Shown in pieces: positions 1 through 12,956 of a stretch of DNA of 12,956 nt (position 1 is its first letter; every line of letters starts with the position of its first letter). The DNA is taken from IMG/VR virus record IMGVR_UViG_2531839252_000007. One strand, given 5' to 3'. The DNA is from a virus. Taxonomy: Duplodnaviria > Heunggongvirae > Uroviricota > Caudoviricetes. The position numbers and the translations under genes were made by a program. Under the pieces are notes generated by a model, which saw only the letters and a list, made by a program, of their open reading frames with translations, searched no databases and had not been told where the DNA came from.

Positions 1-1260
1 ATGGCAAAGCTGACAGATATCCAAATCAAGTCATGGATTAAGGCAGGAGAGCGCTTCGAGGGGCGCTCTGACGGCAACGGGCTATACCTTCGCTATCGAG
101 CGGGGGATAAAGTGCCTGTATGGCGTTTTCGATATCAGTTCGCTGGGAAATCACGGGTAATGCTTATTGGATCTTATAGCGAAATATCCCTTTCCAAAGC
201 ACGGGAAATAGCCAAGGAATTATCCGCACGTGTAGCCCTAGGCTTCGATGTCGCCGGGGAAAAGAAAGCGCGAAAAGCGGCTGCTATAGAAAAGATGGAG
301 CGGGAGAAAAACGCGCTTCGCGTGTCAGAGCTAGCAACCGAGTATTTCGAACGGCAGATTTTGGGACGCTGGAAACATCCCGATCTTCTGCGCCGGAGAA
401 TCGATAAGGATATCAACCCACATATTGGCAACATGAAGATAGAGGACGTAAAACCCCGTCATATTGATGCGATGCTACAGAGCGTTGTTGATCGTGGCGC
501 TCCAACCGTAGCTAATGACGTTCTGCGCTGGACTAAACGCATATTCGATTATGCTATCAAGCGTCATGCACTGGAATTAAACCCAGCTGGAGCATTTGAT
601 CTGTCAGACGCTGGCGGGCAGGAAAGTAGCCGTATGCGCTGGCTGACCCGTGAAGAACTTATACGTTTTTTCCAAGCTATGCGCACTGCAAAAGGATTCA
701 GCCGCGAGAACGAGCTGACCATGAAGCTAATCCTCTGCCTGTGTTGTCGCAAAATGGAGCTGTGCGGTGCTCAGTGGGATGAATTCGACCTTGATGAAGC
801 AGTGTGGCATCTACCAGCAGAACGCGTTAAAAACGGCGACGCTATTGATATACCACTACCTCCACCTGCGGTTGGTTGGTTGAGAGAGCTTCGCACTATC
901 GCGGGCAGTGGGAGTAAATGGGTTCTCCCCGCGCGGAAGATGCAACACCGCATGATTCCCCACATTCAGGAAAGCACACTCCCCGTGGCGCTGGCAAAAG
1001 TACGCCGCGAAATGCCAGAAGTACCAAACTTCACAATTCACGATTTCAGACGTACCGCCCGCACCCATTTAGCGGCGTTGGGTGTCGATCCCGTAGTCGC
1101 AGAACGTTGCCTGAATCACCGCATTAAAGGCGTTGAGGGTATCTACAACCGCCACCAGTACTTTGAAGAACGACGGGCAGCCCTGGAACTGTGGGCGGGG
1201 CTTCTGGTTTCGCTTGAACGAGGGGAAAACTACAATGTTATTCCTTTATCTAAAATATAA
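1..1260 (+). CDS. int: Tyrosine recombinase / phage integrase, P4-like family
   Basis: 419-aa ORF. The N-terminus (MAKLTDIQIK...GNGLYLRYRAGDK..WRFRYQFAGK) is typical of P4-type integrase N-domains. C-terminal catalytic signatures HDFRRTARTH (H-x-x-R) and GIYNRHQY (catalytic Tyr region) are present. The window begins exactly at the start codon, so promoter and att site lie outside it. Confidence 0.93.
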   Translation: MAKLTDIQIKSWIKAGERFEGRSDGNGLYLRYRAGDKVPVWRFRYQFAGKSRVMLIGSYSEISLSKAREIAKELSARVALGFDVAGEKKARKAAAIEKMEREKNALRVSELATEYFERQILGRWKHPDLLRRRIDKDINPHIGNMKIEDVKPRHIDAMLQSVVDRGAPTVANDVLRWTKRIFDYAIKRHALELNPAGAFDLSDAGGQESSRMRWLTREELIRFFQAMRTAKGFSRENELTMKLILCLCCRKMELCGAQWDEFDLDEAVWHLPAERVKNGDAIDIPLPPPAVGWLRELRTIAGSGSKWVLPARKMQHRMIPHIQESTLPVALAKVRREMPEVPNFTIHDFRRTARTHLAALGVDPVVAERCLNHRIKGVEGIYNRHQYFEERRAALELWAGLLVSLERGENYNVIPLSKI

Positions 1261-1275
1261 AAGTTTTGTTTGAAG

Positions 1276-1380
1276 GTATTCACCCTATTCACCTTTTTAA
1301 TTAACTTCATGATTTTAAATAATAAAAAAGGGTGAATACTTACAGTAAAACTAATCACCTTAGTATTCACCTGTTCACCT
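1276..1380. repeat. Iteron cluster (TATTCACC/TGTTCACC octamers, direct and inverted) with AT-rich tract; putative ori of a P4-like replicon
   Basis: Octamer copies at about 1277-1284, 1286-1293, 1364-1371 and 1372-1379 (+), 1331-1338 (inverted, GGTGAATA), and a degenerate AATCACC at 1353-1359. An AT-rich stretch at 1294-1329 lies between them. The same motif family recurs at 11742-11843. Confidence 0.6.
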
Positions 1381-1452
1381 TCTAAAGCTGCTGTGGCTGC
1401 TCCCCTTGCCCGAAAACACGCCAGCCACCAGCGTTAAAAAATACAAAAATCA

Positions 1453-1476
1453 TCATCGTCCAGATCTGGACGATGA
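1453..1476. repeat. Perfect 22-24 bp palindrome (CATCGTCCAGATCTGGACGATG)
   Basis: The sequence at 1454-1475 equals its own reverse complement, and one further flanking base pair extends it. It lies in non-coding DNA between the iterons and the first cargo operon. Confidence 0.85.
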
Positions 1477-1571
1477 CGCCAGCACTCACTCTACAAAACA
1501 ACCTAACTTATTGATTTCAAAAGTAGAGAAAATCTGCTTTATGCCACTAGCTCGCACCCGTCCCCAAAAAG

Positions 1572-1603
1572 AAAAAGCCCGCGCTGGAGACGCACGGGCT
1601 TTT
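1572..1603. terminator. Putative bidirectional intrinsic terminator
   Basis: GC-rich stem AGCCCG(1576-1581)/CGGGCT(1595-1600), preceded by an A-tract and followed by TTTT. The loop is rather long, so confidence is moderate. Confidence 0.45.
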
Positions 1604-1677
1604 GGGTACCGATAACCATGTTTGGAATCAACTCATTGAGTTCTGACCTCAATTTGCATGTTATCACAAGAAAAACA

Positions 1678-1726
1678 CATTGCAATAATTGCAACAACGA
1701 ATATTATCATTGCGTATAATGAAACA
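1678..1726 (+). promoter_or_regulatory. Candidate sigma70 promoter and operator for cargo operon 1
   Basis: Consensus -10 TATAAT at 1715-1720. TTGCAA hexamers at 1680-1685 and 1689-1694 sit inside the palindromic element ATTGCAAT-AATTGCAA (operator-like), but spacing to the -10 is not ideal. A 13-bp inverted repeat AACTCA-T-TGAGTT lies at 1630-1642. Confidence 0.4.
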
Positions 1727-1760
1727 TAAATATCCGATAGAACATACTGAGGTCTGACCG

Positions 1761-2312
1761 ATGAAAGATATTACAAACATCGCAGTGACTGGCGAAGATG
1801 GCGTGGTGACGTATGCCGACGGCAGTAAAGAGGAGTTCCAGTGCAGCGGAACCGTTGCGACCATCATTGCAAGTCTTGCAACGACACTCGAGAAAGAACG
1901 CAAAATGCGCATCGCCACCGGCGACCGCCTGCGCCGCATGTACACCCGCGACAGTGATATGATTTCCCGCGGTTTGAATGGCACGTCTGCTACTTCCACG
2001 GCACCGACAGCAATGAATGCTGAGTTCATGCGTCTGGTACGTGCCGTAGCGCCGAAATACGATTCAGCACTGCCCGACGCCGACCCGCGCATCGTTGCGC
2101 TCGATGTGCTGCGCTACGCCCCTGCTGAGGCGTTCAGCGCCGTACACCCTACCCCAATGTCAGAAATCCAGCTGGATCAGGCTATCGATATACTCGAGCA
2201 GGTTGGCGACTACATGAAAGCAAACAATATCGCTCCGAAAATAATTTCTACAGGAGACGCAATCCGCAGCATCAATGCTGACAACGCCACCTTCTGGGGC
2301 AAAAAACACTAA
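1761..2312 (+). CDS. Hypothetical protein (183 aa), first gene of cargo cassette 1
   Basis: Long ORF with a GAGG Shine-Dalgarno about 9 nt upstream of the ATG. No family recognisable from sequence. The antisense ORF 1664-2092 is judged spurious. Confidence 0.75.
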   Translation: MKDITNIAVTGEDGVVTYADGSKEEFQCSGTVATIIASLATTLEKERKMRIATGDRLRRMYTRDSDMISRGLNGTSATSTAPTAMNAEFMRLVRAVAPKYDSALPDADPRIVALDVLRYAPAEAFSAVHPTPMSEIQLDQAIDILEQVGDYMKANNIAPKIISTGDAIRSINADNATFWGKKH

Positions 2313-2318
2313 AGAGAT

Positions 2319-2513
2319 ATGAGCATGCCTATCTATGACCCGAAATTAGCCGCAGGCAACCCACAGCGCGCCCACCGCCCGATGCTGACCCGTCAGGATC
2401 TTGAAGCGGCAAAGGCACGCAATAACTTCGATCGCCAGAGTCGCAACCTGCAGCAACTCAACGAATCAAATGCACGGTTCTGGAGTGAACAGAATGAGAA
2501 AGCCAAACGTTAA
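2319..2513 (+). CDS. Small hypothetical protein (64 aa)
   Basis: Begins 6 nt after the upstream stop and is basic and Q/R-rich. Its 3' end overlaps the next start by 20 nt. Confidence 0.5.
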   Translation: MSMPIYDPKLAAGNPQRAHRPMLTRQDLEAAKARNNFDRQSRNLQQLNESNARFWSEQNEKAKR

Positions 2514-2670
2514 GCCGGTCCTGCTGTCCGCCGAGCAGATGCAGGCCATACGCAACATTCAGGAACGTGAACGCCAGCGCTCCAATCTCGGCGTCGCTCC
2601 CACCGTTCACCAGATTGCCCGCGGCCTCATGGCTAAGGCTCTGGCCTCACTGGCAAGCGAGGGCGTGTAA
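2494..2670 (+). CDS. Small hypothetical protein (58 aa), possible DNA-binding or adaptor protein
   Basis: The ATG at 2494 has a GGAG Shine-Dalgarno 8 nt upstream. The track ORF 2401-2670 is trimmed to this start because the longer version would overlap the previous gene by over 100 nt. Its stop overlaps the next start (TAATG). Confidence 0.55.
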   Translation: MRKPNVKPVLLSAEQMQAIRNIQERERQRSNLGVAPTVHQIARGLMAKALASLASEGV

Positions 2671-3341
2671 TGGGCGCCATTCACCAGATATATGAGCAGG
2701 AAATGTTCTATAACTGGATAGGCGATGGTAAACGATGTGTAGCATTCCACGAAGCGGGCCATGCAGTAGCCGCATGGCTTATTCGCTTAGATATGCAGGT
2801 TATCGCCATTATGGATGAATCCGGCTACGTTGCTGGCGAACATGTACATGAAGCCCAGTGTTTGGGCGTTGTTAAACACGGCATAATCCACAACCACGAT
2901 CTCAGGCGTTTGCGGGAGAGTAAATCTGGTGTAGTTGGGCACGATGGCAAAGTTATCCCTTTCATACGCTACTACGCGGAAGGTATAAAACGCGATGCAA
3001 CAAAGGCCGCTTTTGTAGCCCTCGCTGGACCAGTAAGCGAAGCCCTTTACGAAAATAACGAAATTTTCAATAAAAAGTATTCACTCCCTCACCGCTATGA
3101 CATGGCTAACGTAAATGACATGCTCGATTTAATATGTGCCACGGATAAGCAAATTAACAGGAAGTTAATGCTTTCTAAACTTGTTGAAAAGACCAAATTC
3201 CTCATGACTCAATACTGGCCGGAAGTAGGAAAAATAGCGCATTTGCTTGAGCGGGATAACATTGTTAATGGGCGCGATGTTAGCTCGCTAATCGGCCTCA
3301 ACGTCATTGACCGGGCAACGCCATTTTTGCTGGCGGAATAA
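2670..3341 (+). CDS. Standalone zinc metalloprotease-like protein with HEXXH motif (FtsH / M41 protease-domain-like)
   Basis: AFHEAGHAVAAW motif at residues 26-37 (HEAGH at nt 2748-2762) resembles the FtsH active-site helix. Downstream LAGPVSEALYEN resembles the FtsH LAEE region. No AAA+ ATPase or transmembrane segment is present. Start is coupled to the upstream stop. Confidence 0.75.
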   Translation: MGAIHQIYEQEMFYNWIGDGKRCVAFHEAGHAVAAWLIRLDMQVIAIMDESGYVAGEHVHEAQCLGVVKHGIIHNHDLRRLRESKSGVVGHDGKVIPFIRYYAEGIKRDATKAAFVALAGPVSEALYENNEIFNKKYSLPHRYDMANVNDMLDLICATDKQINRKLMLSKLVEKTKFLMTQYWPEVGKIAHLLERDNIVNGRDVSSLIGLNVIDRATPFLLAE

Positions 3342-3417
3342 CCCCTGCCCGAGCTCATTCGACGATTTATTCCTCGGCGGGTAAGCTATACCGGTCTACC
3401 TAACTGCGAGCACAAGG

Positions 3418-4476
3418 ATGATGAATAATTTAATCAATCGCATTGCTTTAACCTTTCTAGCGTTAGTACTCACAGGCTGCACTGCGGGGAAAATCGATCC
3501 CGCAAAAGCGTTAACACAAATGCATATCGTCAAAAGTGATGACTATAAGAAGCGCCCCGGCTGGCCTGCGTTGGTTCGTCTGGGTACTGACGATTGTGAG
3601 ACATACAAAAGTGGCGGCGGTAGCCTCTTTAAGTGGGACGGGCTGACGTGCAACGACAAAAGCATTATCCTGGCGGTTAATAGCAAACCACAGACCATTC
3701 CAGTGTTCTACGCTGCTTACCATGAATACGGGAGCTATGGGGTCGGGGAACTATCCAATTTTGACAATAGCACCCGAACAGGTGAGGAAGCCTCGAAGAT
3801 TCTGGTTAACCTGACCACAGTATTGAACAATCCGGCAAAAGTTGACGCTATCTATGCTGACTATGAAAAGGATCGTTGGAGCATGGGACTTGGTACAGTC
3901 AACGAAAGCGATTTTAAAAAGAGCCTGGCTACTTTTGCTCAGGAACGGGATAAGCTTGCCTCTGAATACCATAAATTACGTGACGCAAACCAAAAGAGAT
4001 ACCTAGCTGAACGGGACGAACGAATCAAACGTGAGAAAGAAGAGGCCATGGCCTCTGAAAAAACGATTGATCTCGTGTTATGGCAGAATCCAACAGTTGA
4101 GCAACAGATGGTTGTTGACGCTCTGCACACTATTAAATTCACAATAAGAAACGATGGCGTGGCATACGCTAACGGTCGCCGATTTATGTCAATTGCCGGG
4201 ATGGAATATCTCAGGAATAGCCTAGCTCTGAGTATGGAGTCATGTTCAGACGCTGGGGCATATGTTGGTGATACGGCATTAAATCGCGCATGTATTCAGG
4301 GCTTGGCGAGGAACATTGTTGAGTGGGGGAAAACCGCCAACGACCGTTCTATTTCAGACAGAGCATGGAACGCAGCCGCAATGGATGGCAGCATTAACTA
4401 CAACCCAATCAAGTATGAAATCCTGTTTTCACATTGGGCAGGAATGGCCCGTGTCTACTCTGCTCGTGGATATTAA
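3418..4476 (+). CDS. Lipoprotein (352 aa) with signal peptide, lipobox and charged coiled-coil-like segment
   Basis: The N-terminus MMNNLINRIALTFLALVLTGC has a hydrophobic core and an L-T-G-C lipobox. An AAGGA Shine-Dalgarno lies upstream. The middle region KLRDANQKRYLAERDERIKREKEEAMASEK is coiled-coil-like. Confidence 0.85.
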   Translation: MMNNLINRIALTFLALVLTGCTAGKIDPAKALTQMHIVKSDDYKKRPGWPALVRLGTDDCETYKSGGGSLFKWDGLTCNDKSIILAVNSKPQTIPVFYAAYHEYGSYGVGELSNFDNSTRTGEEASKILVNLTTVLNNPAKVDAIYADYEKDRWSMGLGTVNESDFKKSLATFAQERDKLASEYHKLRDANQKRYLAERDERIKREKEEAMASEKTIDLVLWQNPTVEQQMVVDALHTIKFTIRNDGVAYANGRRFMSIAGMEYLRNSLALSMESCSDAGAYVGDTALNRACIQGLARNIVEWGKTANDRSISDRAWNAAAMDGSINYNPIKYEILFSHWAGMARVYSARGY

Positions 4477-4526
4477 ACACTGCGCTTCGAACTGATAAAT
4501 TTAAGCTTAATCAGTACATTACTGTT

Positions 4527-4552
4527 AGCCCGCATTTTAGCGGGCTTTCTTT
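4527..4552 (+). terminator. Rho-independent terminator after the lipoprotein gene
   Basis: Stem AGCCCGC(4527-4533), loop ATTTTA, stem GCGGGCT(4540-4546), followed by TTCTTT. Confidence 0.7.
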
Positions 4553-4569
4553 AGTTGAGCTTTGTACAA

Positions 4570-4585
4570 GATGTAAATTTACATC
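4570..4585. repeat. Perfect 16-bp palindrome GATGTAAATTTACATC
   Basis: Self-complementary and AT-rich. It sits between convergent genes, about 35 nt past the stop of the minus-strand peptidase gene. It could be a minus-strand terminator hairpin or a binding site. Confidence 0.5.
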
Positions 4586-4618
4586 CTGATTATCCAGTGC
4601 GCCGTAAAAGCTGGCAAT

Positions 4619-5731
4619 CTATTTAACTAAACGTAAATGTGACGGGCGTATCCCCGATTCCTGGGTACTCGATTTTCCACCATTGATAGCTTCCATAAAG
4701 AAGCTGTTACTGAAAGTAAGTGCACTCGCTTCGTCCGCAGGTAACCTCAACTGCTCGAGAATATCTCCCCTTTTAACGCCTTTGCTGCGTAGGGCTGAAA
4801 ACACTTTATCCAGCACTAATGACTTTTCACGTTCAGCAATCCCTTGAGGCTCACTCGTACGATATCCACGGCGAGCAAGTTCTATCGATAGCTGTCGATA
4901 ATGCCATTCGGTAGATAAACCGACATCAAACGTACGGCGCACCAAAGCCGCCAATGATACCCGCCAGTTCTTTTTTAACGAGATGAGTAGATCAAGCGAT
5001 GGCATTCTTGGCACTAAAGCTAAAATACTACGCTCAGGCATCAAAAAGGCCGATGCGAATCGATCTGCATCCTGCTCAGCTTGGCGGCCGTTGTTAGTTG
5101 AATGTTTATGGAGAACCAAGTGCCCCAGTTCATGAGCTGCATCGAATCGACTACGCTCCGGCGTTTTCATTGTATTCAAAAGCACAAAAGGTTTTTCATC
5201 CATCCAGAAAGAAAAGGCGTCTACTTCAATACAATTTTCCGCGAGAGAGAACACACGGACCCCATTAGCTTCAAGAAGATGGACCATGTTAGAGATGGAT
5301 AATTCACCTATCCCCCAACTTTCTCTAACCACGCGAGCAGCTCGCTCAGGCTCAGAATAACCATCGAAACTACAATCAGGTACATTAGGTTTAGGAAGCT
5401 TAAACTGCCCGTCAATCCAAGCTGATAGCTCTTGCGCGAGCTTTCCGGCTCCGAGTGCTGAGTCCCTTTTCTGTGCCGTCAACTTTGTCATTGCACGGAA
5501 ACTAACGGCTTCTGGCGACAGAGTAGGTACATCCCTGTCGAGGAAGAACTCAATCGGATAGCCCAGAACAGCAGAAATCCGTTCCATGGTATCGCTGGCT
5601 ATGGCATCAAAAATCCCTGCTTTCTCGTAATTCGAAATCGTCTTACTAGTCAATTCTGTAGCTTCAGCTAAAGCTCTTTGTGTCAGGCCTCTCCGTTCTC
5701 TGGCTATACGTAAACGCTCTGAATTAAACAT
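4619..5731 (-). CDS. XRE-family HTH fused to ImmA/IrrE-type (M78, COG2856-like) zinc metallopeptidase, with C-terminal extension of about 130 aa
   Basis: N-terminal HTH LTQRALAEATELTSKTISNYEKAG. HELGH at residues 200-204 (nt 5120-5134, verified by reverse-complement translation). Followed by EQDADRFASAFLMP, the characteristic ImmA/IrrE E-x-x-A-x-x-F-A-x-x-x-L-x-P signature. Starts 9 nt after the upstream gene stop. Confidence 0.9.
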   Translation of the reverse strand: MFNSERLRIARERRGLTQRALAEATELTSKTISNYEKAGIFDAIASDTMERISAVLGYPIEFFLDRDVPTLSPEAVSFRAMTKLTAQKRDSALGAGKLAQELSAWIDGQFKLPKPNVPDCSFDGYSEPERAARVVRESWGIGELSISNMVHLLEANGVRVFSLAENCIEVDAFSFWMDEKPFVLLNTMKTPERSRFDAAHELGHLVLHKHSTNNGRQAEQDADRFASAFLMPERSILALVPRMPSLDLLISLKKNWRVSLAALVRRTFDVGLSTEWHYRQLSIELARRGYRTSEPQGIAEREKSLVLDKVFSALRSKGVKRGDILEQLRLPADEASALTFSNSFFMEAINGGKSSTQESGIRPSHLRLVK

Positions 5732-5740
5732 GGTGCATAT

Positions 5741-6460
5741 TTAGCCTGTTTTTAAAATGTCGAGATCGATATCCGGTGTAAACTGCGGTACATCACCGTT
5801 CTGAACAATAGGGTCAGGTTGATGAGGAGCAATAATTAAACGTGTGGAGAAGGCATTAACTACATTCTTGTTATTGTATGAAATCGGGCGTGAAAGCTCA
5901 GCTCGGATCCCCACGCGCTCATCCCCGTCAATTTCATAAAAATCGTAAAGTAAAAACCATAAGTCCAGTCCGATTTTATTCGGTAGCAGTGGTATAACAT
6001 CACCTTCCGGCATGTCTAAATCCAGCTTAAGCTGGCTATCATCCAGGATAAGCTCACCCTGACCCGGGGTGTTATTATGGATTAACCCCATCAGCTCACA
6101 AGTAAAATCACCTTTCTTCATGCGAGACTCAGGAAATCCATGAACCAAACCTGTCTGATCACACCCCCGGCAGAGGTAAAGGGCAACTTTATCACTTACA
6201 GTCAGTTCAACATTTCGCAGGGACAGACGTTTGTAGCCTTTCGGAGCCAGAATGTCGCGGGCTGCACTCACCCCCTCACCATAGAAATATTGCCCACGTG
6301 AGGTCTTGGGGTGATTCTGAGTCGTCGAATAACGACCAGACAAGCCACGCTCAAGAATACGCCTGAGATCACTTTGGCTCAGATTCAGGGACTGCAGGTA
6401 GGATTCAACATCGTCAGGATCTGCCAAAACAATGGTTTTTGCGAGATTATGAGAGTACAT
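5741..6460 (-). CDS. Hypothetical protein (239 aa), first gene of minus-strand cargo operon
   Basis: ATG at 6458-6460 with an AAGAGG Shine-Dalgarno 8 nt upstream. No recognisable family. Co-oriented with, and 9 nt upstream of, the HTH-peptidase gene. Confidence 0.8.
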   Translation of the reverse strand: MYSHNLAKTIVLADPDDVESYLQSLNLSQSDLRRILERGLSGRYSTTQNHPKTSRGQYFYGEGVSAARDILAPKGYKRLSLRNVELTVSDKVALYLCRGCDQTGLVHGFPESRMKKGDFTCELMGLIHNNTPGQGELILDDSQLKLDLDMPEGDVIPLLPNKIGLDLWFLLYDFYEIDGDERVGIRAELSRPISYNNKNVVNAFSTRLIIAPHQPDPIVQNGDVPQFTPDIDLDILKTG

Positions 6461-6485
6461 CGGAAAAGCCTCTTATATATTTTCT

Positions 6486-6520
6486 ATTTTTTATACCTCA
6501 TTTGAGGTTTAAAAACAAGA
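6486..6520 (-). promoter_or_regulatory. Candidate promoter of the minus-strand operon with palindromic operator in the spacer
   Basis: On the minus strand: -35 TTGTTT (plus 6513-6518), 17-bp spacer, -10 TATAAA (plus 6490-6495). The spacer contains the inverted repeat ACCTCA-tt-TGAGGT (6495-6508). Confidence 0.45.
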
Positions 6521-6666
6521 AAATCACTGTATAAAATCTCAGAGATAATCGACAGATTAGAGAGTATTATCCATATTGAGGCTATCCCGACGGGGAGAAA
6601 AGCGGCTACGCCTTGCCGCCTGCCTCCCCCATTATCTCAAGGCGGTGACGTGTAAGGCGAACGTGC

Positions 6667-7485
6667 ATGAGTGGTTTTGTTTTTCCTTTCGAGTTTCAAC
6701 CAGTGCCAGAGGCATTGGCAATCCTGAACGACATGGATATTGCTCCCTTTGAAATAACCGAAAAACACCTAGAAAGCTGGTGGGCGGAGGGGAAAATTCA
6801 ACTGTGCTTTAACTGGGGTAGATTCTGGAAAGCTGGCTTAGCCGACGAACTGGCAAAAACAGAAGGCTACGCAGAATTAGGGGCGAAAGAAAAGATCACT
6901 GCGCTCAATGCTGTATCCGCTTCCCCCGAGGCTAACATCAGTCTTGTCGTGCCATCTTACAGCGATTTAAGTTTTATCTGGCGCGGGCATAGCGACGATC
7001 CACTCCCCTGTATCGAGGCCAAACCCTACGGGCTTGATCAACCTTTTGTTATCAAACGCGTTCCTCACACCTGCGAGGACTATTGCGATTACGGTACGCA
7101 GCATTGGGAAAAACTTTACCATTCGCTGCACATTTCGAGTATGGTGCTGCCGCGTGCTGAAGCTGAAAAAATTTATTATCTCTGCAACCCTACAGCTATT
7201 CCAGGCATGGACGAAAAGACGGCATCTGCAGTATCTGCGAAAACGGTTAACTATCTGGCCACTGCTTTAAAAGCTTTTATTCACATCCATTACGGGGCTG
7301 ATGTGGCGGACAACCTGCGCAAACATCTTGAGGATCCCACCAGTGATATACGGAAAGACTTTGCGAATAAAGGGATCAAAGCGCCAGGTGGAAAAGCGCT
7401 GGCCAGCCATCTGAAAAATATTCTGATTGAAGTTTTACCCGCGCTCGACAACGTCGATGTGGAGAGTGACGCTGGTAATACATAA
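6667..7485 (+). CDS. Hypothetical protein (272 aa), divergent from the minus-strand operon
   Basis: Coding-like ORF with AAGG about 9 nt upstream of the ATG. Contains a Cys/His-rich patch HTCEDYCDYGTQHWEKLYHSLH. No recognisable family. Confidence 0.7.
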   Translation: MSGFVFPFEFQPVPEALAILNDMDIAPFEITEKHLESWWAEGKIQLCFNWGRFWKAGLADELAKTEGYAELGAKEKITALNAVSASPEANISLVVPSYSDLSFIWRGHSDDPLPCIEAKPYGLDQPFVIKRVPHTCEDYCDYGTQHWEKLYHSLHISSMVLPRAEAEKIYYLCNPTAIPGMDEKTASAVSAKTVNYLATALKAFIHIHYGADVADNLRKHLEDPTSDIRKDFANKGIKAPGGKALASHLKNILIEVLPALDNVDVESDAGNT

Positions 7486-7547
7486 CCCCGGAACATTCCA
7501 TATATTCCGACGCATTAGAATATTCCAGAGCCCATCACCATAACCTT

Positions 7548-7581
7548 GCGATTACCTTCTCACTCAATAGCAGGTAATCGC
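7548..7581 (+). promoter_or_regulatory. Inverted repeat GCGATTACC/GGTAATCGC overlapping the alpA ribosome-binding site
   Basis: 9-bp arms at 7548-7556 and 7573-7581 with a 16-nt spacer. The right arm ends at the base before the alpA ATG. Three TATTCC-like repeats lie upstream at 7494-7526. Confidence 0.4.
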
Positions 7582-7794
7582 ATGAAATCGCAAACTTTCA
7601 CCTTTCCCACCAATGGCAACGCACGAGCCAAACAAGTGGCGCACTATCTTGGAGTGCATATCAGCACCGTATGGCGCTATGCAAAACGTCCTGATTTTCC
7701 AAAACCCCACCAGTTAACCGACGGCGTGACCGTCTTTGACGCCGCAGCTATTCGCCAATGGAACAAGCAAAAAACCGGGGGTGAGAATGCTTAA
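7582..7794 (+). CDS. alpA: AlpA-family (P4 Vis / CP4-57 AlpA-like) small HTH regulator or excisionase
   Basis: 70-aa product MKSQTFTF...VAHYLGVHISTVWRYAKRPDFPKPHQLTDGVTVFDAAAIRQWNKQ matches the AlpA/Xis-type pattern (LGVs.sTvWR...FP.P...W...I..W). An in-frame start also exists at 7546. Confidence 0.85.
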   Translation: MKSQTFTFPTNGNARAKQVAHYLGVHISTVWRYAKRPDFPKPHQLTDGVTVFDAAAIRQWNKQKTGGENA

Positions 7795-7848
7795 CGCGAC
7801 CGTGAGCACACCCTGCACGACAGCCGTTCGATCTCCATTGTTGGCGGG

Positions 7849-8043
7849 TCAGGCTTTCGGCTCAATACCCAGCCGCTGGAGTTCTTTGCGCCCCAAGGTT
7901 TTCATCCAATTAGCTAAACTCATACCTGCATCTCGTGCGGCGGCCTCGAATTGCTCTTTCAATTCTGGGGCGATCCTCACTTGGAAAGCTGGTGCCTTTC
8001 CCCTGCCTTTGGGCTGTTTATCACGCTGTATTACTGTTGACAT
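7849..8043 (-). CDS. Ribbon-helix-helix (CopG/Arc-like) small DNA-binding protein, likely repressor
   Basis: 64-aa product from M18 of the track ORF; the upstream AGG gives a better ribosome-binding site than the 8094 start. FQVRIAPELKEQFEAAARDAGMSLANWMKTLGRKEL fits a strand-helix-helix pattern. Divergent from the replication operon. Confidence 0.6.
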   Translation of the reverse strand: MSTVIQRDKQPKGRGKAPAFQVRIAPELKEQFEAAARDAGMSLANWMKTLGRKELQRLGIEPKA

Positions 8044-8177
8044 GTATGTACCTATTAAACTAAGATTCAAATCAATAGGTACGCACCTTAACATGTTAAG
8101 GTCAGAAAAGACAACGCCCCGTATGTGTTGCGAGCACTACGGGGCGTCTAACCAACAACGTTACGGAGACTAACGCT
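8044..8177. promoter_or_regulatory. Densely structured control region between the RHH gene and the replication operon
   Basis: Inverted repeat GTACCTATT/AATAGGTAC (8048-8056 / 8074-8082). Perfect 16-bp palindrome CCTTAACATGTTAAGG (8086-8101). GC-rich inverted repeat ACGCCCCGTA/TACGGGGCGT (8114-8123 / 8138-8147). Confidence 0.5.
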
Positions 8178-8378
8178 ATGGCTAAGCCGCAGTGTACCCA
8201 AACTCACCCCAAATATCAGTATCGTTTTATGGCGCTCGATCGCGCTGACCGCCAGGCAAAACCCTGCAAAATCATTGTTGAGGCCACCAGCGAGCACGAA
8301 GCGCGTAAAGTGCTGGCTCCTCACTACATCCTGTCACTGTCCGCCGTTTTGCCAGTTCAGGAGGTGAGCCATGTTTAA
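8178..8378 (+). CDS. Small hypothetical protein (66 aa), first gene of replication-module operon
   Basis: GGAGA Shine-Dalgarno 9 nt upstream. The operon is tightly packed. Confidence 0.65.
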   Translation: MAKPQCTQTHPKYQYRFMALDRADRQAKPCKIIVEATSEHEARKVLAPHYILSLSAVLPVQEVSHV

Positions 8379-8565
8379 CGTCATTGTCACGGTCACCTAT
8401 CACTTTTCGGGAACGATCCGTCGTTTTGCTATTCCGGAACGTTTCAATAATCGTGAGCTCGCAGAGAAAGCAGCGCAGCAGTTAACCCATACCAGCTATC
8501 TGGATGATGGAGTGAGCAGAATTGTGACCCACGCGGCGGAAGTAGTGGAGGTGCGCCATGTATGA
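8371..8565 (+). CDS. Small hypothetical protein (64 aa)
   Basis: AGGAGG Shine-Dalgarno 6 nt upstream. Start overlaps the upstream stop by 8 nt. Confidence 0.7.
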   Translation: MFNVIVTVTYHFSGTIRRFAIPERFNNRELAEKAAQQLTHTSYLDDGVSRIVTHAAEVVEVRHV

Positions 8566-8746
8566 CGCCTACCTGAACCCAAAGGACGCACTCCGTCCGA
8601 TCGCCGTTGCACTCGAGGCTGTGCAGTTTATCGCGCTTGACCCGGAGAATACCGATTTAGCCCATGAGCTGATCGCCTGGGCACTTGAAACAGCCGCGCG
8701 TGCCTCAGCTGCGCAACGTAACCCCCCGGAGGGTAAAAATGCTTAA
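8558..8746 (+). CDS. Small hypothetical protein (62 aa)
   Basis: GGAGGTG Shine-Dalgarno upstream. Start overlaps the upstream stop. Confidence 0.7.
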   Translation: MYDAYLNPKDALRPIAVALEAVQFIALDPENTDLAHELIAWALETAARASAAQRNPPEGKNA

Positions 8747-9047
8747 TCTCAATACATGGAATCTTTTCACGCTGCCGCTGAACGGTGGCGCAGCTGAGAC
8801 AGCGCCGGACGATCTGCGTCTGCTGGCCGCTGTGGGGGACGAGGCTCGCAACGACTACCTGCGCGGTGTAAGCGCCATCGGCAATCTGATCTTCTGGGCA
8901 TGTGATAACCCCAACTACACCGACCATAAAGCTGACCTGCCAGCGCTGGGCGCATTCCTGAAACATACCGCTGATATGGCGCGCGCTGCCGAATTCATGG
9001 CGGGACATCTGGACTCACTGGCTGACGGCAAAGAGGGAGGCAAATAA
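8739..9047 (+). CDS. Hypothetical protein (102 aa)
   Basis: Trimmed from track ORF 8685-9047 to the ATG at 8739, which has a GGAGGG Shine-Dalgarno and overlaps the upstream stop. Confidence 0.6.
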   Translation: MLNLNTWNLFTLPLNGGAAETAPDDLRLLAAVGDEARNDYLRGVSAIGNLIFWACDNPNYTDHKADLPALGAFLKHTADMARAAEFMAGHLDSLADGKEGGK

Positions 9048-9268
9048 TGCCACGCAAACATCGCTCATCAAGCAACCTGATCAAATTAATGGAACGCCAG
9101 AAAGGTATAGGGCGCGACGATATCCAGATCGCAGATAATCGCCCTACATTCATGCCGTACGAGCCGAACGGAACCTACGCCACAAACCGCCATACCCGCC
9201 GTATGCTACGCAAGCTCCACGGCATCCAGGCAAAAAGAATGTGTGATCTGAAAGGAGGTCAGAAATGA
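9047..9268 (+). CDS. Small basic hypothetical protein (73 aa)
   Basis: AGGGAGG Shine-Dalgarno upstream. TAATG start/stop overlap with the upstream gene and ATGA overlap with the primase gene. Confidence 0.65.
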   Translation: MPRKHRSSSNLIKLMERQKGIGRDDIQIADNRPTFMPYEPNGTYATNRHTRRMLRKLHGIQAKRMCDLKGGQK

Positions 9269-11679
9269 TTGGATTCGATCACCTGATGGAGCAGGGGCAG
9301 AAACGCACCCCTGCTCGTTTTACTGCAAATAGCTTTTCTGACCTGTGCAACGCTATTCTATCGCATCGTGTGCAAATTTCCATCACCCCAGAAATGACAG
9401 ATGAAGAGCGACGTAAGGAAAAGCAGAAACTGTACTGGTTCTCGGCAACTACCCAGCAGGACGGGCAGCGACGTAAACCCGAAAACATGGCACCGTGTGC
9501 TTTCGGTATGCTGGACATTGACGGCAGCACTCCCGGTGCAATCACAGCACTTGTACAGGTGTTCCGGCGATACTCAATGCTGGTGTACCAGACGGCCAGC
9601 TATACGGCGGATGAACCTCGTCTGCGTATTGTGTGCGAGCTTTCCCGAGCGGTTGAATCTGACTACCGCCGAGCGACAGGCGAATCCATAGAAACTTTGT
9701 TGATGCAGGAGGCTGGATTCTCATTCGCCAGCCTGGCGGATAAGAAAGCACGCTGGGAGAACGGCAGCGATTATGTTGTCTTTGACCGCAATGTATACGG
9801 CGCTCAAAGCTATTGCTACTGTCCACACTCTGGAGCGAAAGCCCAGAATTACGCGGGCGCGGTAATCGACGTAGGGGCGTTACCGGAACCCGCCCAGCTA
9901 CCAGCGAAGGCGGCCAAAAGCAAGGCAAAGAAACAGCGCCAGCGTGACGCCGCGGCGGTAATAGATGCTGATTTTGACGATCTGAGCGCCGGACCGGATA
10001 ACTTCCTTATCGCCGACCTGCGCAGCGCACTCTGGTTTCCCTCCATGCTGCAAAAGGCATGGGACAATGGGGCGTGGATTGAGCAGGGCTACCGCCTTGC
10101 ATCTCTCAAAGGCACCGATTTTGAGGACGACGCGCGGCAGCTGTGGGTCGAGTGGTCATTGACCGCGGCGGATGGCTGGCCTGATGAAGAACTTGATGAA
10201 GTCGCAGCACAACGCTGGGATGGTCTCGCCCCTGACAAAACCAGCTATAAAGCTATTTTTACTGATGCTCAGGCGCAGGGGTGGAATAATCCGAGCACAT
10301 GGCGAGCAAAGGCCGCGTACATTGAGAAAATGGCCCCCAGCACACGCGGTGAACTGCTAGCGCAATATTACGGCAACGTATGCCTGAAAGCTGATGGCAA
10401 CATGGTTTATCACTATACCGGGCAGGGGTGGGAGCACATCGCCGATGCCGAGTTGCGCCGCCAGCTTTCGCATATTTTCAAAGATAACGGGGTCCCCTTT
10501 ACACCGTACGAGGTTAAAAGCGCGATTGAGGCTATGGGAATGCTTCTGCCTTTAATGGGAGAAACTCCTCGTAACCTGATTGGCTTTGCCAACGGCGTTT
10601 ATGATCTCGAGGCGCAGCGATTCCGCCCCCACTGCCCAGACGATTGGCTGACCAGCCATAACGGCGTTGAATACACGCAACCGGTTAAAGGCGAAACCCT
10701 GAAAAACAATGCCCCAAACTTCTGGCGCTGGCTGCATCATTCCGCAGGGGGCGACTTCGACAAAATGGAGAGAATCAAAGCCGCTCTGTATATGGTGCTG
10801 GCAAACCGCTACGACTGGCAACTGTTCATCGAGGTTACCGGTGCTGGTGGCAGTGGTAAAAGCGTGTTCACGGGTATTGCACGTATGCTGACGGGCGAAC
10901 TACACGCCACCAGCGGCACAATGGAGGACATGGACACCGCGCGCGAACGCGCATCTTTTGTCGGCAAAAGCCTGATCACCCTACCCGACCAAGCAACATA
11001 TACGGGTTCCGGGCCGGGTATCAAGGCTATAACGGGCGGCGACGTGGTAAGGATCGACCCAAAGCACGAAAAGCCATTCCATACGGTTATTCGCGCCGTT
11101 GTCATCGCAACAAACAACGAACCTATGCGTTTCACCGAACGACAAGGCGGGATATCGCGGCGCCGGGTTATTTTCCCGTTTAACCATGAAGTGCCGGAGG
11201 CGGAACGTGATCCCCATCTGCTCGATAAAATTAAAGCCGAACTGCCGGTAATCGTCCGTGGTCTGCTGATTGACTTCGAACAGCCAGGCAAAGCCAAATC
11301 GCTACTTATCGCGCAGCGTGATTCAGCGGAAGCGCTGCAGGTGAAGAACGATAACGACCCGATGTATGGCTTTTGCTCTTACCTGCTAGGTTTGCCGAAT
11401 CCCGAGGGCATGTACATGGGCGATGGGCGCATGGCGCGAGAGCCACGCATCTACCTCTATCATGCTTATCTGGCCTATCTGGAAGCCTACGGTTATCAGA
11501 GAACCCCCACCCTGCCAAAGTTCAGCGGAGATTTACGGGACACGCTCAAAGCCTTTGGTATTACTCTGGACAGTAAAAAGAGTAAAAAGGGCAAAAGATA
11601 TAACGTCAATTTGTCTGACAGGGCACAAGAATGGCTGGGAGAAGACGAACTCTCAGCTGTGCCCGACACATTGCAGTAA
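9265..11679 (+). CDS. Replication primase/helicase (N-terminal AEP/prim-pol-like domain, P4-family/D5-like SF3 helicase domain)
   Basis: 804 aa with an AAAGGAGG Shine-Dalgarno. Walker A VTGAGGSGKS at residues 526-533 (nt 10840-10863) sits in the middle, as in P4 alpha and D5-type helicases. N-terminal MLDIDG (nt 9508-9525) is an acidic D-x-D motif consistent with an AEP-type primase. Confidence 0.85.
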   Translation: MIGFDHLMEQGQKRTPARFTANSFSDLCNAILSHRVQISITPEMTDEERRKEKQKLYWFSATTQQDGQRRKPENMAPCAFGMLDIDGSTPGAITALVQVFRRYSMLVYQTASYTADEPRLRIVCELSRAVESDYRRATGESIETLLMQEAGFSFASLADKKARWENGSDYVVFDRNVYGAQSYCYCPHSGAKAQNYAGAVIDVGALPEPAQLPAKAAKSKAKKQRQRDAAAVIDADFDDLSAGPDNFLIADLRSALWFPSMLQKAWDNGAWIEQGYRLASLKGTDFEDDARQLWVEWSLTAADGWPDEELDEVAAQRWDGLAPDKTSYKAIFTDAQAQGWNNPSTWRAKAAYIEKMAPSTRGELLAQYYGNVCLKADGNMVYHYTGQGWEHIADAELRRQLSHIFKDNGVPFTPYEVKSAIEAMGMLLPLMGETPRNLIGFANGVYDLEAQRFRPHCPDDWLTSHNGVEYTQPVKGETLKNNAPNFWRWLHHSAGGDFDKMERIKAALYMVLANRYDWQLFIEVTGAGGSGKSVFTGIARMLTGELHATSGTMEDMDTARERASFVGKSLITLPDQATYTGSGPGIKAITGGDVVRIDPKHEKPFHTVIRAVVIATNNEPMRFTERQGGISRRRVIFPFNHEVPEAERDPHLLDKIKAELPVIVRGLLIDFEQPGKAKSLLIAQRDSAEALQVKNDNDPMYGFCSYLLGLPNPEGMYMGDGRMAREPRIYLYHAYLAYLEAYGYQRTPTLPKFSGDLRDTLKAFGITLDSKKSKKGKRYNVNLSDRAQEWLGEDELSAVPDTLQ

Positions 11680-11700
11680 CTTGTAAAAAATCACCAAGAA

Positions 11701-11722
11701 CCCCGTAAATCGGGGCTTTTGT
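11701..11722 (+). terminator. Rho-independent terminator after the primase/helicase gene
   Basis: CCCCG stem, TAAAT loop, CGGGG stem, then CTTTTGT, starting 22 nt after the stop. Confidence 0.7.
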
Positions 11723-11741
11723 CTATTTATTAGTCTGAAAG

Positions 11742-11852
11742 GGTGAACAGGTGCGCATACCTTAACAAAGCTGTTCACTCTAATAATTTTCTTTAATATC
11801 AGTACACTACCCGCAATAAGTGAACAGATGGACGGGGTGAACACTTCACACC
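11742..11852. repeat. Second iteron cluster (TGTTCACC family); putative crr-like cis replication region
   Basis: GGTGAACA at 11742-11749 and 11836-11843 (perfect reverse complements of TGTTCACC). TGTTCACT at 11772-11779 and AGTGAACA at 11819-11826 (one mismatch each). Degenerate CTTCACACC at 11844-11852. Confidence 0.6.
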
Positions 11853-12338
11853 TATAGCGCGAAATATTTTAATATTTGCAGTTGAATTGCAATCCTTGAA
11901 AACAGAAACGCGTAGCAAAACGTAGAGTGCTGAAAAAATTTTGTTGGGGAGCAGTTCAAACTGCATGAGCAATTTTCAAGCACTCCTCTTTGTCTTGTAC
12001 CCAAGACTGTACCCAATAGAAAAAATAGAAAATAAAAACTCAGCAATAGCAGCGATTGGTGCCACTACTCAACATTCAGATTCATAAGCGACATATCTCC
12101 GTAGGCCGTTGTTAATTACAGCGGCGCTACGCATATAGTTTCGTCCTCATATTTATTTACTCCATACTTTTTCTAATGCATTTTACTTATCACAAAATCA
12201 GAAAAATGCATTCTTACTACAGAAAATAGCAATTTCACATAACTACAAATTATCAATCTATTCTCTCCTTAAAAAATCTCAATCGTGACAATGCGCACAA
12301 ATCGCTACCCTTCCAGACAGATTTTTAGGGAGAGAACC

Positions 12339-12956
12339 ATGCTGTTACACATTTTGTATTTGGTTGGCATTACTGCCGAAGCCATGACGGGGGCGCTGGC
12401 GGCCGGACGACGGCGTATGGATACATTTGGCGTAATTATTATTGCGACCGCCACGGCAATTGGCGGAGGGTCAGTGCGCGATATTCTGCTGGGCCACTAT
12501 CCGCTCGGCTGGGTCAAACACCCGGAATATGTGATTATTGTCGCTACCGCCGCAGTACTCACCACTATCGTTGCTCCTGTAATGCCTTACCTGCGCAAAG
12601 TGTTTCTGGTGCTCGATGCGCTCGGACTGGTGGTCTTTTCTATCATTGGCGCACAGGTTGCACTGGATATGGGACACGGCCCGATCATTGCCGTTGTCGC
12701 AGCTGTGACGACCGGCGTATTTGGCGGCGTTTTGCGCGATATGTTCTGTAAACGCATCCCGCTGGTATTCCAGAAAGAATTGTATGCCGGTGTCTCATTT
12801 GCCTCCGCCGTGCTGTACATCGCGCTGCAACACTATGTTTCTAACCATGATGTGGTAATTATCTCCACCCTGGTATTCGGCTTTTTTGCCCGCTTACTGG
12901 CGCTACGCCTTAAGCTGGGATTACCGGTCTTTTACTACAGCCACGAAGGACACTAA
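12339..12956 (+). CDS. yicG: UPF0126 family inner-membrane protein (YicG/YadS-like); probable host backbone gene
   Basis: 205-aa product from the internal ATG at 12339, which has an AGGGAGAGA Shine-Dalgarno; the track ORF starts earlier at 12285. Highly hydrophobic, with the duplicated GGGSVRD / FGGVLRD motifs typical of UPF0126. The gene symbol is from memory of E. coli YicG and is tentative. Confidence 0.85.

Follow-up and report, generated by a model that had tools for sequence, protein, structure and literature searches.

The stretch of DNA analysed here, a Caudoviricetes record of 12,956 nucleotides (IMG/VR IMGVR_UViG_2531839252_000007; hereafter the window), carries a mobile element at positions 1-12084. 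Including about 200 bp to the left of the window, the whole element measures about 12.3 kb and lies at the 3' end of the gene yicC. We consider it probable, at about 70%, that this element is a site-specific island of the satellite group comprising phage P4 and the Gram-negative phage-inducible chromosomal islands (PICIs), inserted in the last ~21 nucleotides of yicC. On this reading it is an uncharacterised but ordinary relative of known phage satellites. The window-wide gene map was built from a six-frame listing of open reading frames (ORFs) combined with domain scans. All ORFs of the element are intact, and the scans found no phage structural or lysis genes (PHROG). An earlier reading, made from the letters of the window alone (the sequence-only reading), had described a backbone of integrase, AlpA-like regulator, divergent ribbon-helix-helix (RHH) repressor, coupled small-gene operon and primase; all five components were found where that reading had placed them.

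Boundaries and target site of the element

Element boundaries were determined by megablast and site comparison, using the occupied sites of strains DEC5B (locus L001) and CU42ET-1 (L004) and the empty sites of K-12 (yicC-dinD-yicG) and CFIAFB20120266 (yicC-yicG, without dinD). The right junction was located at 12084/12085. Indeed, window positions 11680-12084 were 100% identical to the DEC5B element, and from 12085 onwards the window corresponded to the dinD-less empty yicC-yicG site, its first bases being the yicC stop codon. The left junction lies outside the window. In DEC5B, CU42ET-1 and E2348/69 it precedes the int ATG by about 190-210 bp and falls within the final 21 nucleotides of yicC. 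In all copies read, the element was inserted directly after yicC. The sequence-only reading had proposed a single integrative element with its left junction outside the window and its right junction between 11853 and 12280. Comparison with the two empty sites bore this out, and the att duplication bounds the element at 1-12084. That reading had also suggested a tRNA gene as a possible attB. A tRNA gene search of the window found none, and attB is the end of a protein-coding gene, yicC; a tRNA was thus ruled out as the integration target.

The flanking repeat that the sequence-only reading had proposed to look for exists as a copy of the yicC 3' end. The last 8 nucleotides of the element (12077-12084, plus strand), CAGATTCA, form the core remnant of attR, and the last yicC codons are replaced by the element's own copy. 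In DEC5B the att repeat spans about 21 nucleotides and reads CAGATTCA-ACATTGAATAA, against CAGATCCAGAATATTGAATGA at attL. The yicC remnant at attR is short by 1 nucleotide in DEC5B, 10 in the window and 6 in strain 64.1. These deletions begin immediately 3' of CAGATTCA in the window (12077-12090), in DEC5B (locus positions 16077-16097) and in 64.1 (~16925-16945), and their shared start probably marks the position of strand exchange. Variable-length deletions ("damage") at attR are reported as typical of PICI integration (PMC10111431), in agreement with the losses seen here.

The first gene of the element (1-1260, plus strand) encodes a P4-type tyrosine integrase with Arm-DNA-bind_3, Phage_int_M and Phage_integrase domains, predicted to be specific for the yicC 3' end. 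Its identity is 27% to P4 Int (tblastn, E=1e-21), 80% to its counterpart in a canonical PICI occupying the same yicC site in strain 64.1 (L019), and about 26% to the integrases of the Klebsiella helper-embedded PICI examples retrieved. At the other end of the element, a doubled arm-type motif with 12-bp spacing, TGTACCCAA-N3-TGTACCCAA (11995-12016, plus strand), is presumed to be the arm-binding site of Int in attR. The 19-mer TTGTACCCAAGACTGTACC at 11995-12013 has an exact second copy in DEC5B and CU42ET-1, 79 bp ahead of the int start codon. This 19-bp direct repeat was considered as the att core and dropped, because the junction, as judged from the empty sites, lies at the end of yicC, roughly 70 bp farther outward; the repeats are read as putative arm-type sites and not as the crossover. 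The annotation of phage P4 likewise places arm repeats on both sides of the core. The motif centres lie 78.5 bp (attR copy) and 132.5 bp (attL copy) from the junction, and strain 64.1 has an equivalent doubled motif with the same attR-side spacing to within 1 bp. The arm geometry reported for helper-embedded PICIs, 81±2 and 132±2 bp (PMC10111431), agrees with these distances. Those islands differ from the present element in their arm motif, TGTATTGC instead of TGTACCCAA, and in their target, a late gene of a prophage instead of a chromosomal gene.

The second recombination gene, 6.3 kb away from int, is alpA (7582-7794, plus strand). Its product is an AlpA/Vis-type excisionase and regulator (PF05930, E=7.7e-07, above cutoff) that matches phrog_66, a family described as excisionase and transcriptional regulator. 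No direct match to ORF88 of P4 was found by tblastn.

Replication module and relation to P4

Every window protein was compared by tblastn with P4 (NC_001609), a phage with which the sequence-only reading had advised comparison, and three genes showed real homology: int, an Icd-like gene and the primase gene. The Icd/Kil-like small protein (8178-8378, plus strand; phrog_1743; Icd-like by RefSeq name) is 44% identical to the P4 kil/"cI ORF" region (E=5.6e-13). Its gene is the first in a series of six (8178-11679) that are coupled in translation, their start and stop codons overlapping by 1-8 nucleotides. Four small coupled ORFs of 64, 62, 102 and 73 amino acids follow at 8371-9268 (plus strand), with overlapping start and stop codons; homologues of the 62- and 102-residue products occur in the related loci L016-L018 described below. 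The last gene of the series encodes an 804-residue primase-helicase (9265-11679, plus strand) with D5_N, DUF5906 and Pox_D5 domains, and belongs to the P4 family TIGR01613 with a score of 109.9 for a cutoff of 108.7.

Residues 314-791 of the primase are 43% identical to P4 alpha (E=1e-120), and the C-terminal 480 residues are P4 alpha-like, with a D5 helicase and a DNA-binding domain. The N-terminal ~350 residues (window 9265-10310) are not homologous to P4 alpha and are 58-71% identical to DUF927 proteins of about 910 residues from Klebsiella and Salmonella; PriCT_2 is recorded in some relatives of this N-terminus. A sequence search of the PDB with the N-terminal domain was uninformative. Since the N-terminus is unlike that of P4 and yet common to the DUF927 proteins, the sequences indicate domain shuffling between two classes of helicase.

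The iterons also link the element to P4. The motif TRTTCACC occurs seven times in the window, solely at 1277-1379 and 11742-11843; shuffled sequences contained it 0.58 times on average, and none of 200 shuffles reached seven. Cluster 1 (1277-1379), which is ori-like, has five T(A/G)TTCACC copies in both orientations. Cluster 2 is crr-like and follows the primase terminator (11701-11715), the two together covering 11701-11843 and including two copies each of TGTTCACC and TGTTCACT. The motif is identical to the annotated type-1, alpha-binding iteron of P4, TGTTCACC, and P4 likewise has two clusters, its crr holding the place of cluster 2 between the alpha terminator and attP. The origin-like iterons of the sequence-only reading are therefore of the P4 type-1 kind. 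Both clusters are kept in relatives: in the Serratia relative L017 int is likewise followed by an iteron cluster, and the crr-like cluster is retained in L016 and L017.

The overall order is also that of P4, namely int, a variable or defence zone, vis (alpA), kil, small genes, alpha, terminator, crr, arm sites and att. As in P4, a defence system lies between int and the regulatory region, the position of the known P4 hotspot (PMC9122126). The differences are as clear. P4 carries sid, delta, psu, epsilon, cos and the C4/cI-seqA immunity RNA, all of which the present element lacks, and the position of the immunity RNA is taken here by the RHH gene. The N-terminal domains of the two primases are unrelated. 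The ori iterons, which in P4 lie between vis and sid, are displaced to just after int, and P4 targets a tRNA gene whereas this element targets yicC.

These absences were checked by several routes. P4 sid, delta, psu, epsilon, orf151, orf106, gop, beta and cII gave no match in the window beyond noise (tblastn, E<=1), and no Pfam or PHROG family of Sid, Delta or Psu was recognised among the window proteins. Neither a Phage_ASH domain nor a match to P4 epsilon was found in the window; Phage_ASH is present in the Salmonella relative L018. Searches of the window for P2/P4 cos and lambda cosN returned nothing beyond chance, and no immunity RNA, C4 and isrK included, came up in an Rfam scan (E<=1). 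C4 and isrK RNAs are present in L018, L019 and L010. A Leu-leader-like match at 1571-1706 (E=0.36), which overlaps the int terminator, was dismissed as chance. The element had no match in the phage collection besides P4 alpha. The earlier statement that no Sid, Psu, Delta or cos could be recognised is thus upheld by homology, family and cos searches.

SatelliteFinder defines P4-like satellites by at least five of seven components: int, psu, delta, sid, alpA, epsilon and alpha (PMC10085698). Only int, alpA and alpha are present here, and with 3/7 components the element falls outside the operational P4-like family; it would count as a "Type C PICI". The P4-type backbone of the sequence-only reading therefore stands as regards layout, three homologues and the iteron TGTTCACC, but not as membership of the family so defined.

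Gram-negative PICIs and related islands

The element was also compared with Gram-negative PICIs, using the criteria of PMC6092414. It shares with EcCICFT073 and EcCIMP1 the integrase, AlpA, P4-family primase with iterons and a size of ~12 kb, as well as an Icd-like gene and the int-alpA RNA upstream of the alpA operon. At ~12.3 kb it is within the 12-15 kb expected of a PICI, and like these islands it carries no structural or lysis genes. PICI att sites should never be occupied by prophages; the occupied yicC sites that were read contained either this element or another PICI. The element departs from PICIs in the unidirectional order with a late zone after the primase. In canonical PICIs int and alpA are adjacent, whereas here a module resembling a late zone, together with defence genes, separates them. 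The capsid, Rpp, TerS and PerC genes of PICIs are absent, and no packaging or interference module (capsid, Rpp/TerS, Cpm) was recognised among the window proteins. EcCIMP1 similarly lacks a recognisable packaging module; this Type C PICI is mobilised by a helper even though no packaging module is known in it (PMC11773190). The Type C PICI class as such has been set aside as ambiguous (PMC10085698).

The other PICI at yicC, in strain 64.1 (L019, 4390-16730), is a canonical Gram-negative PICI with the canonical order. It has an int-alpA RNA, isrK and C4 RNAs inside a long Icd-like gene, PerC and a gene of the pRiA4b ORF-3 family. Because its integrase is 80% identical to that of the window and it occupies the same site, one int/att module serves two differently organised satellites.

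Relatives of like organisation were found in Salmonella and Serratia, where primase homologues of 62-85% identity lie in islands of the same order: int, iterons, a variable zone, int-alpA RNA, a gene of the family preceding alpA in the window (272 residues), alpA, a small minus-strand gene, icd, small genes, primase and iterons. The Salmonella island with the 85%-identical primase also adjoins yicG; an SLT-domain protein and large proteins without annotation are encoded in its variable zone. A third island, also from Salmonella, carries BrnTA, Ash and C4/isrK RNAs. In the Serratia island the variable zone contains genes for P22-type ejection proteins (DUF2824, P22_gp7, Inj_translocase and P22_gp16). 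P22-type ejection genes (DUF2824, gp7, gp20/Inj_translocase, gp16, SLT) were seen between int and alpA at 1692-6667 of L017 and at 1-6562 of L015 and L016. As these relatives carry captured ejection-protein genes, there are hints that the lineage exploits P22-like helpers.

The sequence-only reading had held that cargo took the place of the satellite late genes. In the four Salmonella and Serratia relatives whose int-alpA zone was read, sid, delta and psu are likewise lacking. Recent loss from P4 is therefore not indicated, which argues for a distinct satellite lineage rather than a recently decayed P4.

The zone between int and alpA

Comparison with a sister element (CU42ET-1, E2348/69) divides the window into conserved and exchanged segments. 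Positions 1-3329 are conserved at 99.3% and 7538-12956 at 98.6%; 3330-7537 is replaced, save for a 103-bp island (6576-6678) at 78%. The segment differing between the two alleles seen, 3330-7537, includes a lipoprotein gene and a RosmerTA pair. The sequence-only reading had regarded about 6 kb of this zone as unrelated cargo. That description fits 3330-7537, which is variable and includes RosmerTA, but not 1572-3341 and 6575-7485, which are conserved.

The first conserved part, module A (1761-3341, plus strand), consists of four coupled genes encoding proteins of 183, 64, 58 and 223 residues with no recognisable family. They matched no PHROG, PADLOC or NCBIfam family and no phage record, apart from a weak FtsH/M41 match in the 223-residue protein (Peptidase_M41), which has an FtsH-like HEAGH (HExxH) zinc-protease motif. 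The module is preceded by an intergenic region (1261-1760) with repeats and terminators, among them a bidirectional terminator hairpin after int (1573-1603) that delimits the portable module on the left. Between iteron cluster 1 and the int terminator, at 1453-1476, lies a perfect 24-bp palindrome, TCATCGTCCAGA|TCTGGACGATGA.

Several observations bear on the origin of module A. It is 99.3% conserved in the element of CU42ET-1, which has the alternative cargo. By megablast, the segment 1572-4486 occurs at 93% identity elsewhere in other E. coli genomes, the shared segment beginning at 1572. Strain 47-1826 (L006) carries it in another PICI-type island, one close to a tRNA-Ile gene, downstream of the genes for the primase, ProQ and PerC, and in strain 64.1 homologues of the 58- and 223-residue proteins (70% and 89%) follow the primase of the canonical yicC PICI. 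In PICI-type satellites of Klebsiella, some of which are embedded in prophage late regions, the gene immediately following the primase encodes a homologue of the 183-residue protein (46%). From these comparisons, 1572-3341 is best described as a conserved satellite module of the PICI post-primase late zone and not as random cargo.

Downstream of module A, a gene at 3418-4476 (plus strand) encodes a predicted lipoprotein of 352 residues, with a signal peptide and a lipobox-like LTGC read from the translation. Domain, PADLOC and PHROG scans assigned it no family, and a tblastn search of 50,697 phage records with this protein and the protease-like protein gave no match. The gene is missing from the CU42ET-1 element and accompanies module A in strain 47-1826.

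The defence genes form the RosmerTA pair, on the minus strand. RmrA, the antitoxin (370 residues, 4619-5731), matched its PADLOC model over the full length (E=1.3e-149) and combines an XRE-type helix-turn-helix domain (HTH_3) with an M78/ImmA zinc peptidase (Peptidase_M78) according to Pfam. RmrT, the toxin (239 residues, 5741-6460; PADLOC E=1.1e-52), is encoded upstream of rmrA in the same orientation with a 9-nucleotide gap. The pair shares with the RosmerTA systems described in PADLOC the toxin-first two-gene operon, the architecture of the antitoxin and the full-length model matches; nothing notable differs, and it belongs to known RmrA/RmrT subfamilies. It is accordingly a predicted phage-defence toxin-antitoxin system, and the earlier suggestion that such an element carries accessory or defence genes is supported. 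In CU42ET-1 and E2348/69 the same slot holds another RosmerTA allele (RmrA, 3.5e-125; RmrT, 8e-16), within a replacement segment that has no lipoprotein gene.

The second conserved part (6575-7485) comprises an RNA leader and a gene of conserved position that together head the alpA operon. The RNA is the int-alpA motif (Rfam RF02996; 6575-6642, plus strand), located in the 5' leader of the operon. It scored 46.5 bits, with a gathering score of 35.8, and corresponds to the 103-bp island conserved in the sister element. Five relatives also exceeded the gathering score. In L004, L016, L017 and L018 the RNA lies 24-25 nucleotides upstream of the gene preceding alpA; in the canonical PICI of 64.1 it comes immediately after int. 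RNA and spacer together occupy 6575-6666 in the window, 8256-8348 in L004, 6626-6717 in L016, 7141-7229 in L017, 5029-5119 in L018 and 5658-5743 in L019. The RNA and the spacer, which includes an AAGG Shine-Dalgarno sequence, are far better conserved than the ORF behind them, and the Serratia copy shows one compensatory change in a stem, from C-G to U-A. Rfam lists the int-alpA RNA as a small RNA gene. Since RNA and spacer outconserve the ORF and always precede it, the comparison suggests a cis-acting leader of the alpA operon.

The 272-residue gene (6667-7485, plus strand) is fast-evolving. Homologues of 37-51% identity occupy the same position in Serratia (L017) and Salmonella (L018), and Salmonella L016 and CU42ET-1 match weakly. 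Owing to this shared position, the gene is read as part of the backbone and not as cargo. The modelled protein possibly resembles, weakly, a MerR/AlpA winged helix.

Between alpA and the icd-primase operon, and divergent from the latter, lies the RHH (Arc/HicB-like) repressor candidate (7849-8094, minus strand; annotated start 8043). It matched an Arc-like repressor family (phrog_228, 2.4e-05) and HicB (0.0015). In elements that are otherwise ~98% identical, the gene is swapped for one encoding a YlcI/YnfO protein (L008, 8383-8565; L009, 8399-8581). By comparison of these loci, the exchange of repressors looks like immunity-type swapping.

Distribution and horizontal movement

A megablast search of 5,426 complete E. 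coli genomes found the whole region at 99.0-99.7% identity in nine genomes and about two thirds of it in eight more, including the enteropathogenic E. coli (EPEC) strain E2348/69. Strains including O55:H7 and O45:H2 carry the element at 99.5-99.7% identity, and the carrier genomes differ in serotype and comprise both dinD-plus and dinD-less contexts. Compared with DEC5B, identity is 100% over the final 405 bp of the element and 99.7% on average over the whole match, but only 94.7% in the adjacent yicG flank. The flanks set side by side were window 12085-12338 and positions 16085-17431 of the DEC5B locus. This contrast between element end and flank supports a recent horizontal movement of the element.

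The host flank itself (12085-12956, plus strand) consists of the yicC stop codon and the intergenic region of the dinD-less lineage, followed by yicG (12339-12956, plus strand; Gly_transporter domain). It is 99.4% identical to the empty site of CFIAFB20120266. The absence of dinD from the host of the window, with yicC adjoining yicG, was also seen in several E. coli genomes, CFIAFB20120266 among them. The primase gene and yicG are separated by an AT-rich spacer of about 600 bp, and G+C drops to 37-42% at 1250-1750 and 11500-12250.

No near-identical plasmid match was found; the only plasmid matches were integrated relatives of 79% identity on Pantoea megaplasmids. As plasmid matches were limited to these, a plasmid origin of the element was ruled out. 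The sequence-only reading had named a plasmid or integrative and conjugative element (ICE) affinity as a counter-test; no such affinity was seen, and the domain scans found no relaxase or Mob domains.

Alternative explanations

The element might instead be a degenerate P4-type prophage remnant that lost sid-delta-psu, epsilon and cos and persists as an immobile, fixed defence island. The absence of all P4 helper-exploitation genes and of cos would fit such decay, as would the slightly damaged attR (10 nucleotides of the yicC remnant are missing in the window) and the rarity of the element in E. coli. We nevertheless consider it unlikely. No backbone ORF is broken, and all are translationally coupled. 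Nearly identical copies occur in separate lineages, with flanks that diverge by 5% and in both dinD-plus and dinD-less contexts, and attR deletions of varying length have been described as typical when PICIs integrate (PMC10111431). Moreover, the Salmonella and Serratia relatives keep the layout at primase identities of 62-85%, again without sid, delta or psu, which points to a stable lineage and not to decay. More doubtful still is a self-replicating, plasmid-like integrative replicon that, once excised, is kept or lost without being packaged and spreads mainly by generalised transduction or flank recombination. The complete replication module with its two iteron clusters, and the failure to find a packaging signal or packaging gene in the window, would suit it. 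However, the characterised elements that combine int, AlpA, Icd/Kil and a P4-family primase are all helper-dependent satellites (PMC6092414, PMC10085698, PMC11773190), and the P22-type ejection genes in the same zone of close relatives imply a life cycle linked to virions.

The choice of target raises another explanation, because the yicC 3' end is also used by conjugatively mobilised islands and is a documented target of IncC- and SXT-mobilised ones (PMC8409611). Like MGIVflInd1, MGIVmi1 and IEEcoMOD1 at yicC, the element could then be of the integrative mobilisable kind and depend on conjugative plasmids or ICEs, not on a phage, for its transfer, and the RHH protein does weakly resemble the relaxosome proteins TraJ and MobA (E ~1e-4 to 4e-3, far below cutoffs). 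Domain and family scans of all ORFs found no relaxase, MobI, MpsA, TraG, TraN or other transfer domain, an oriT being beyond the reach of sequence alone. The same integrase clade (80%) and att serve a canonical PICI with C4/isrK RNAs, the backbone is homologous to P4 and PICI genes, and near-identical plasmid matches are lacking; we regard this origin as very improbable.

A P4/Gram-negative-PICI satellite at yicC thus remains the preferred reading, and several points weigh against it. No helper-exploitation function was recognised, and the window has no cos and no homologue of capsid, terminase, Sid, Psu, Delta or Ash. Module A belongs to no recognisable family, and its structure model was uninformative. 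The case for excision, replication and transfer is built from sequence. The full backbone was found in just 17 of the 5,426 complete E. coli genomes, so the element is not very successful, and the "hotspot" is drawn from two cargo alleles, a small sample.

Proposed life cycle and significance

As a phage satellite, the element might behave as follows. In the integrated state, the RHH protein would keep the icd-primase operon off, and RosmerTA would shield the host through abortive infection. A signal, most probably an infecting or induced helper phage, would lead to expression of the operon formed by the int-alpA RNA, the 272-residue gene and alpA. AlpA and Int would then excise the element through recombination at the yicC core, the alpha-like protein would bind the iterons and replicate the circle, and the DNA would be packaged by a helper that is not P2-like. 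The best candidate for a helper-interaction function is the module at 1761-3341, whose counterparts occupy the late zone of related PICIs. We infer excision, replication from the iterons, the nature of the helper, the role of module A and mobilisation by a helper phage.

It is conceivable, though tentative, that a satellite lineage not yet described unites the element with its relatives from Salmonella, Serratia and Citrobacter. It would have a P4 chassis (alpha and TGTTCACC iterons, kil, vis), non-P2 helpers such as P22-like phages, and exploitation functions located in the int-alpA zone. If so, module A, with or without the lipoprotein, would serve in helper interference or defence as a module of a new kind, and the induction operon would be switched in cis by the int-alpA RNA.

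Thousands of int-AlpA-primase islands ("Type C PICI") are put aside by satellite finders for want of known hijacking genes. The element described here is a clean, bounded example, present in well-studied strains such as EPEC E2348/69 and O55:H7 DEC5B. It links such islands to P4 via the replication origin and shows the swapping of defence genes, with two RosmerTA alleles. Altogether, it refines known categories and overturns none, while supplying testable candidates for a helper-interaction module, so far missing, and for what the int-alpA RNA does.

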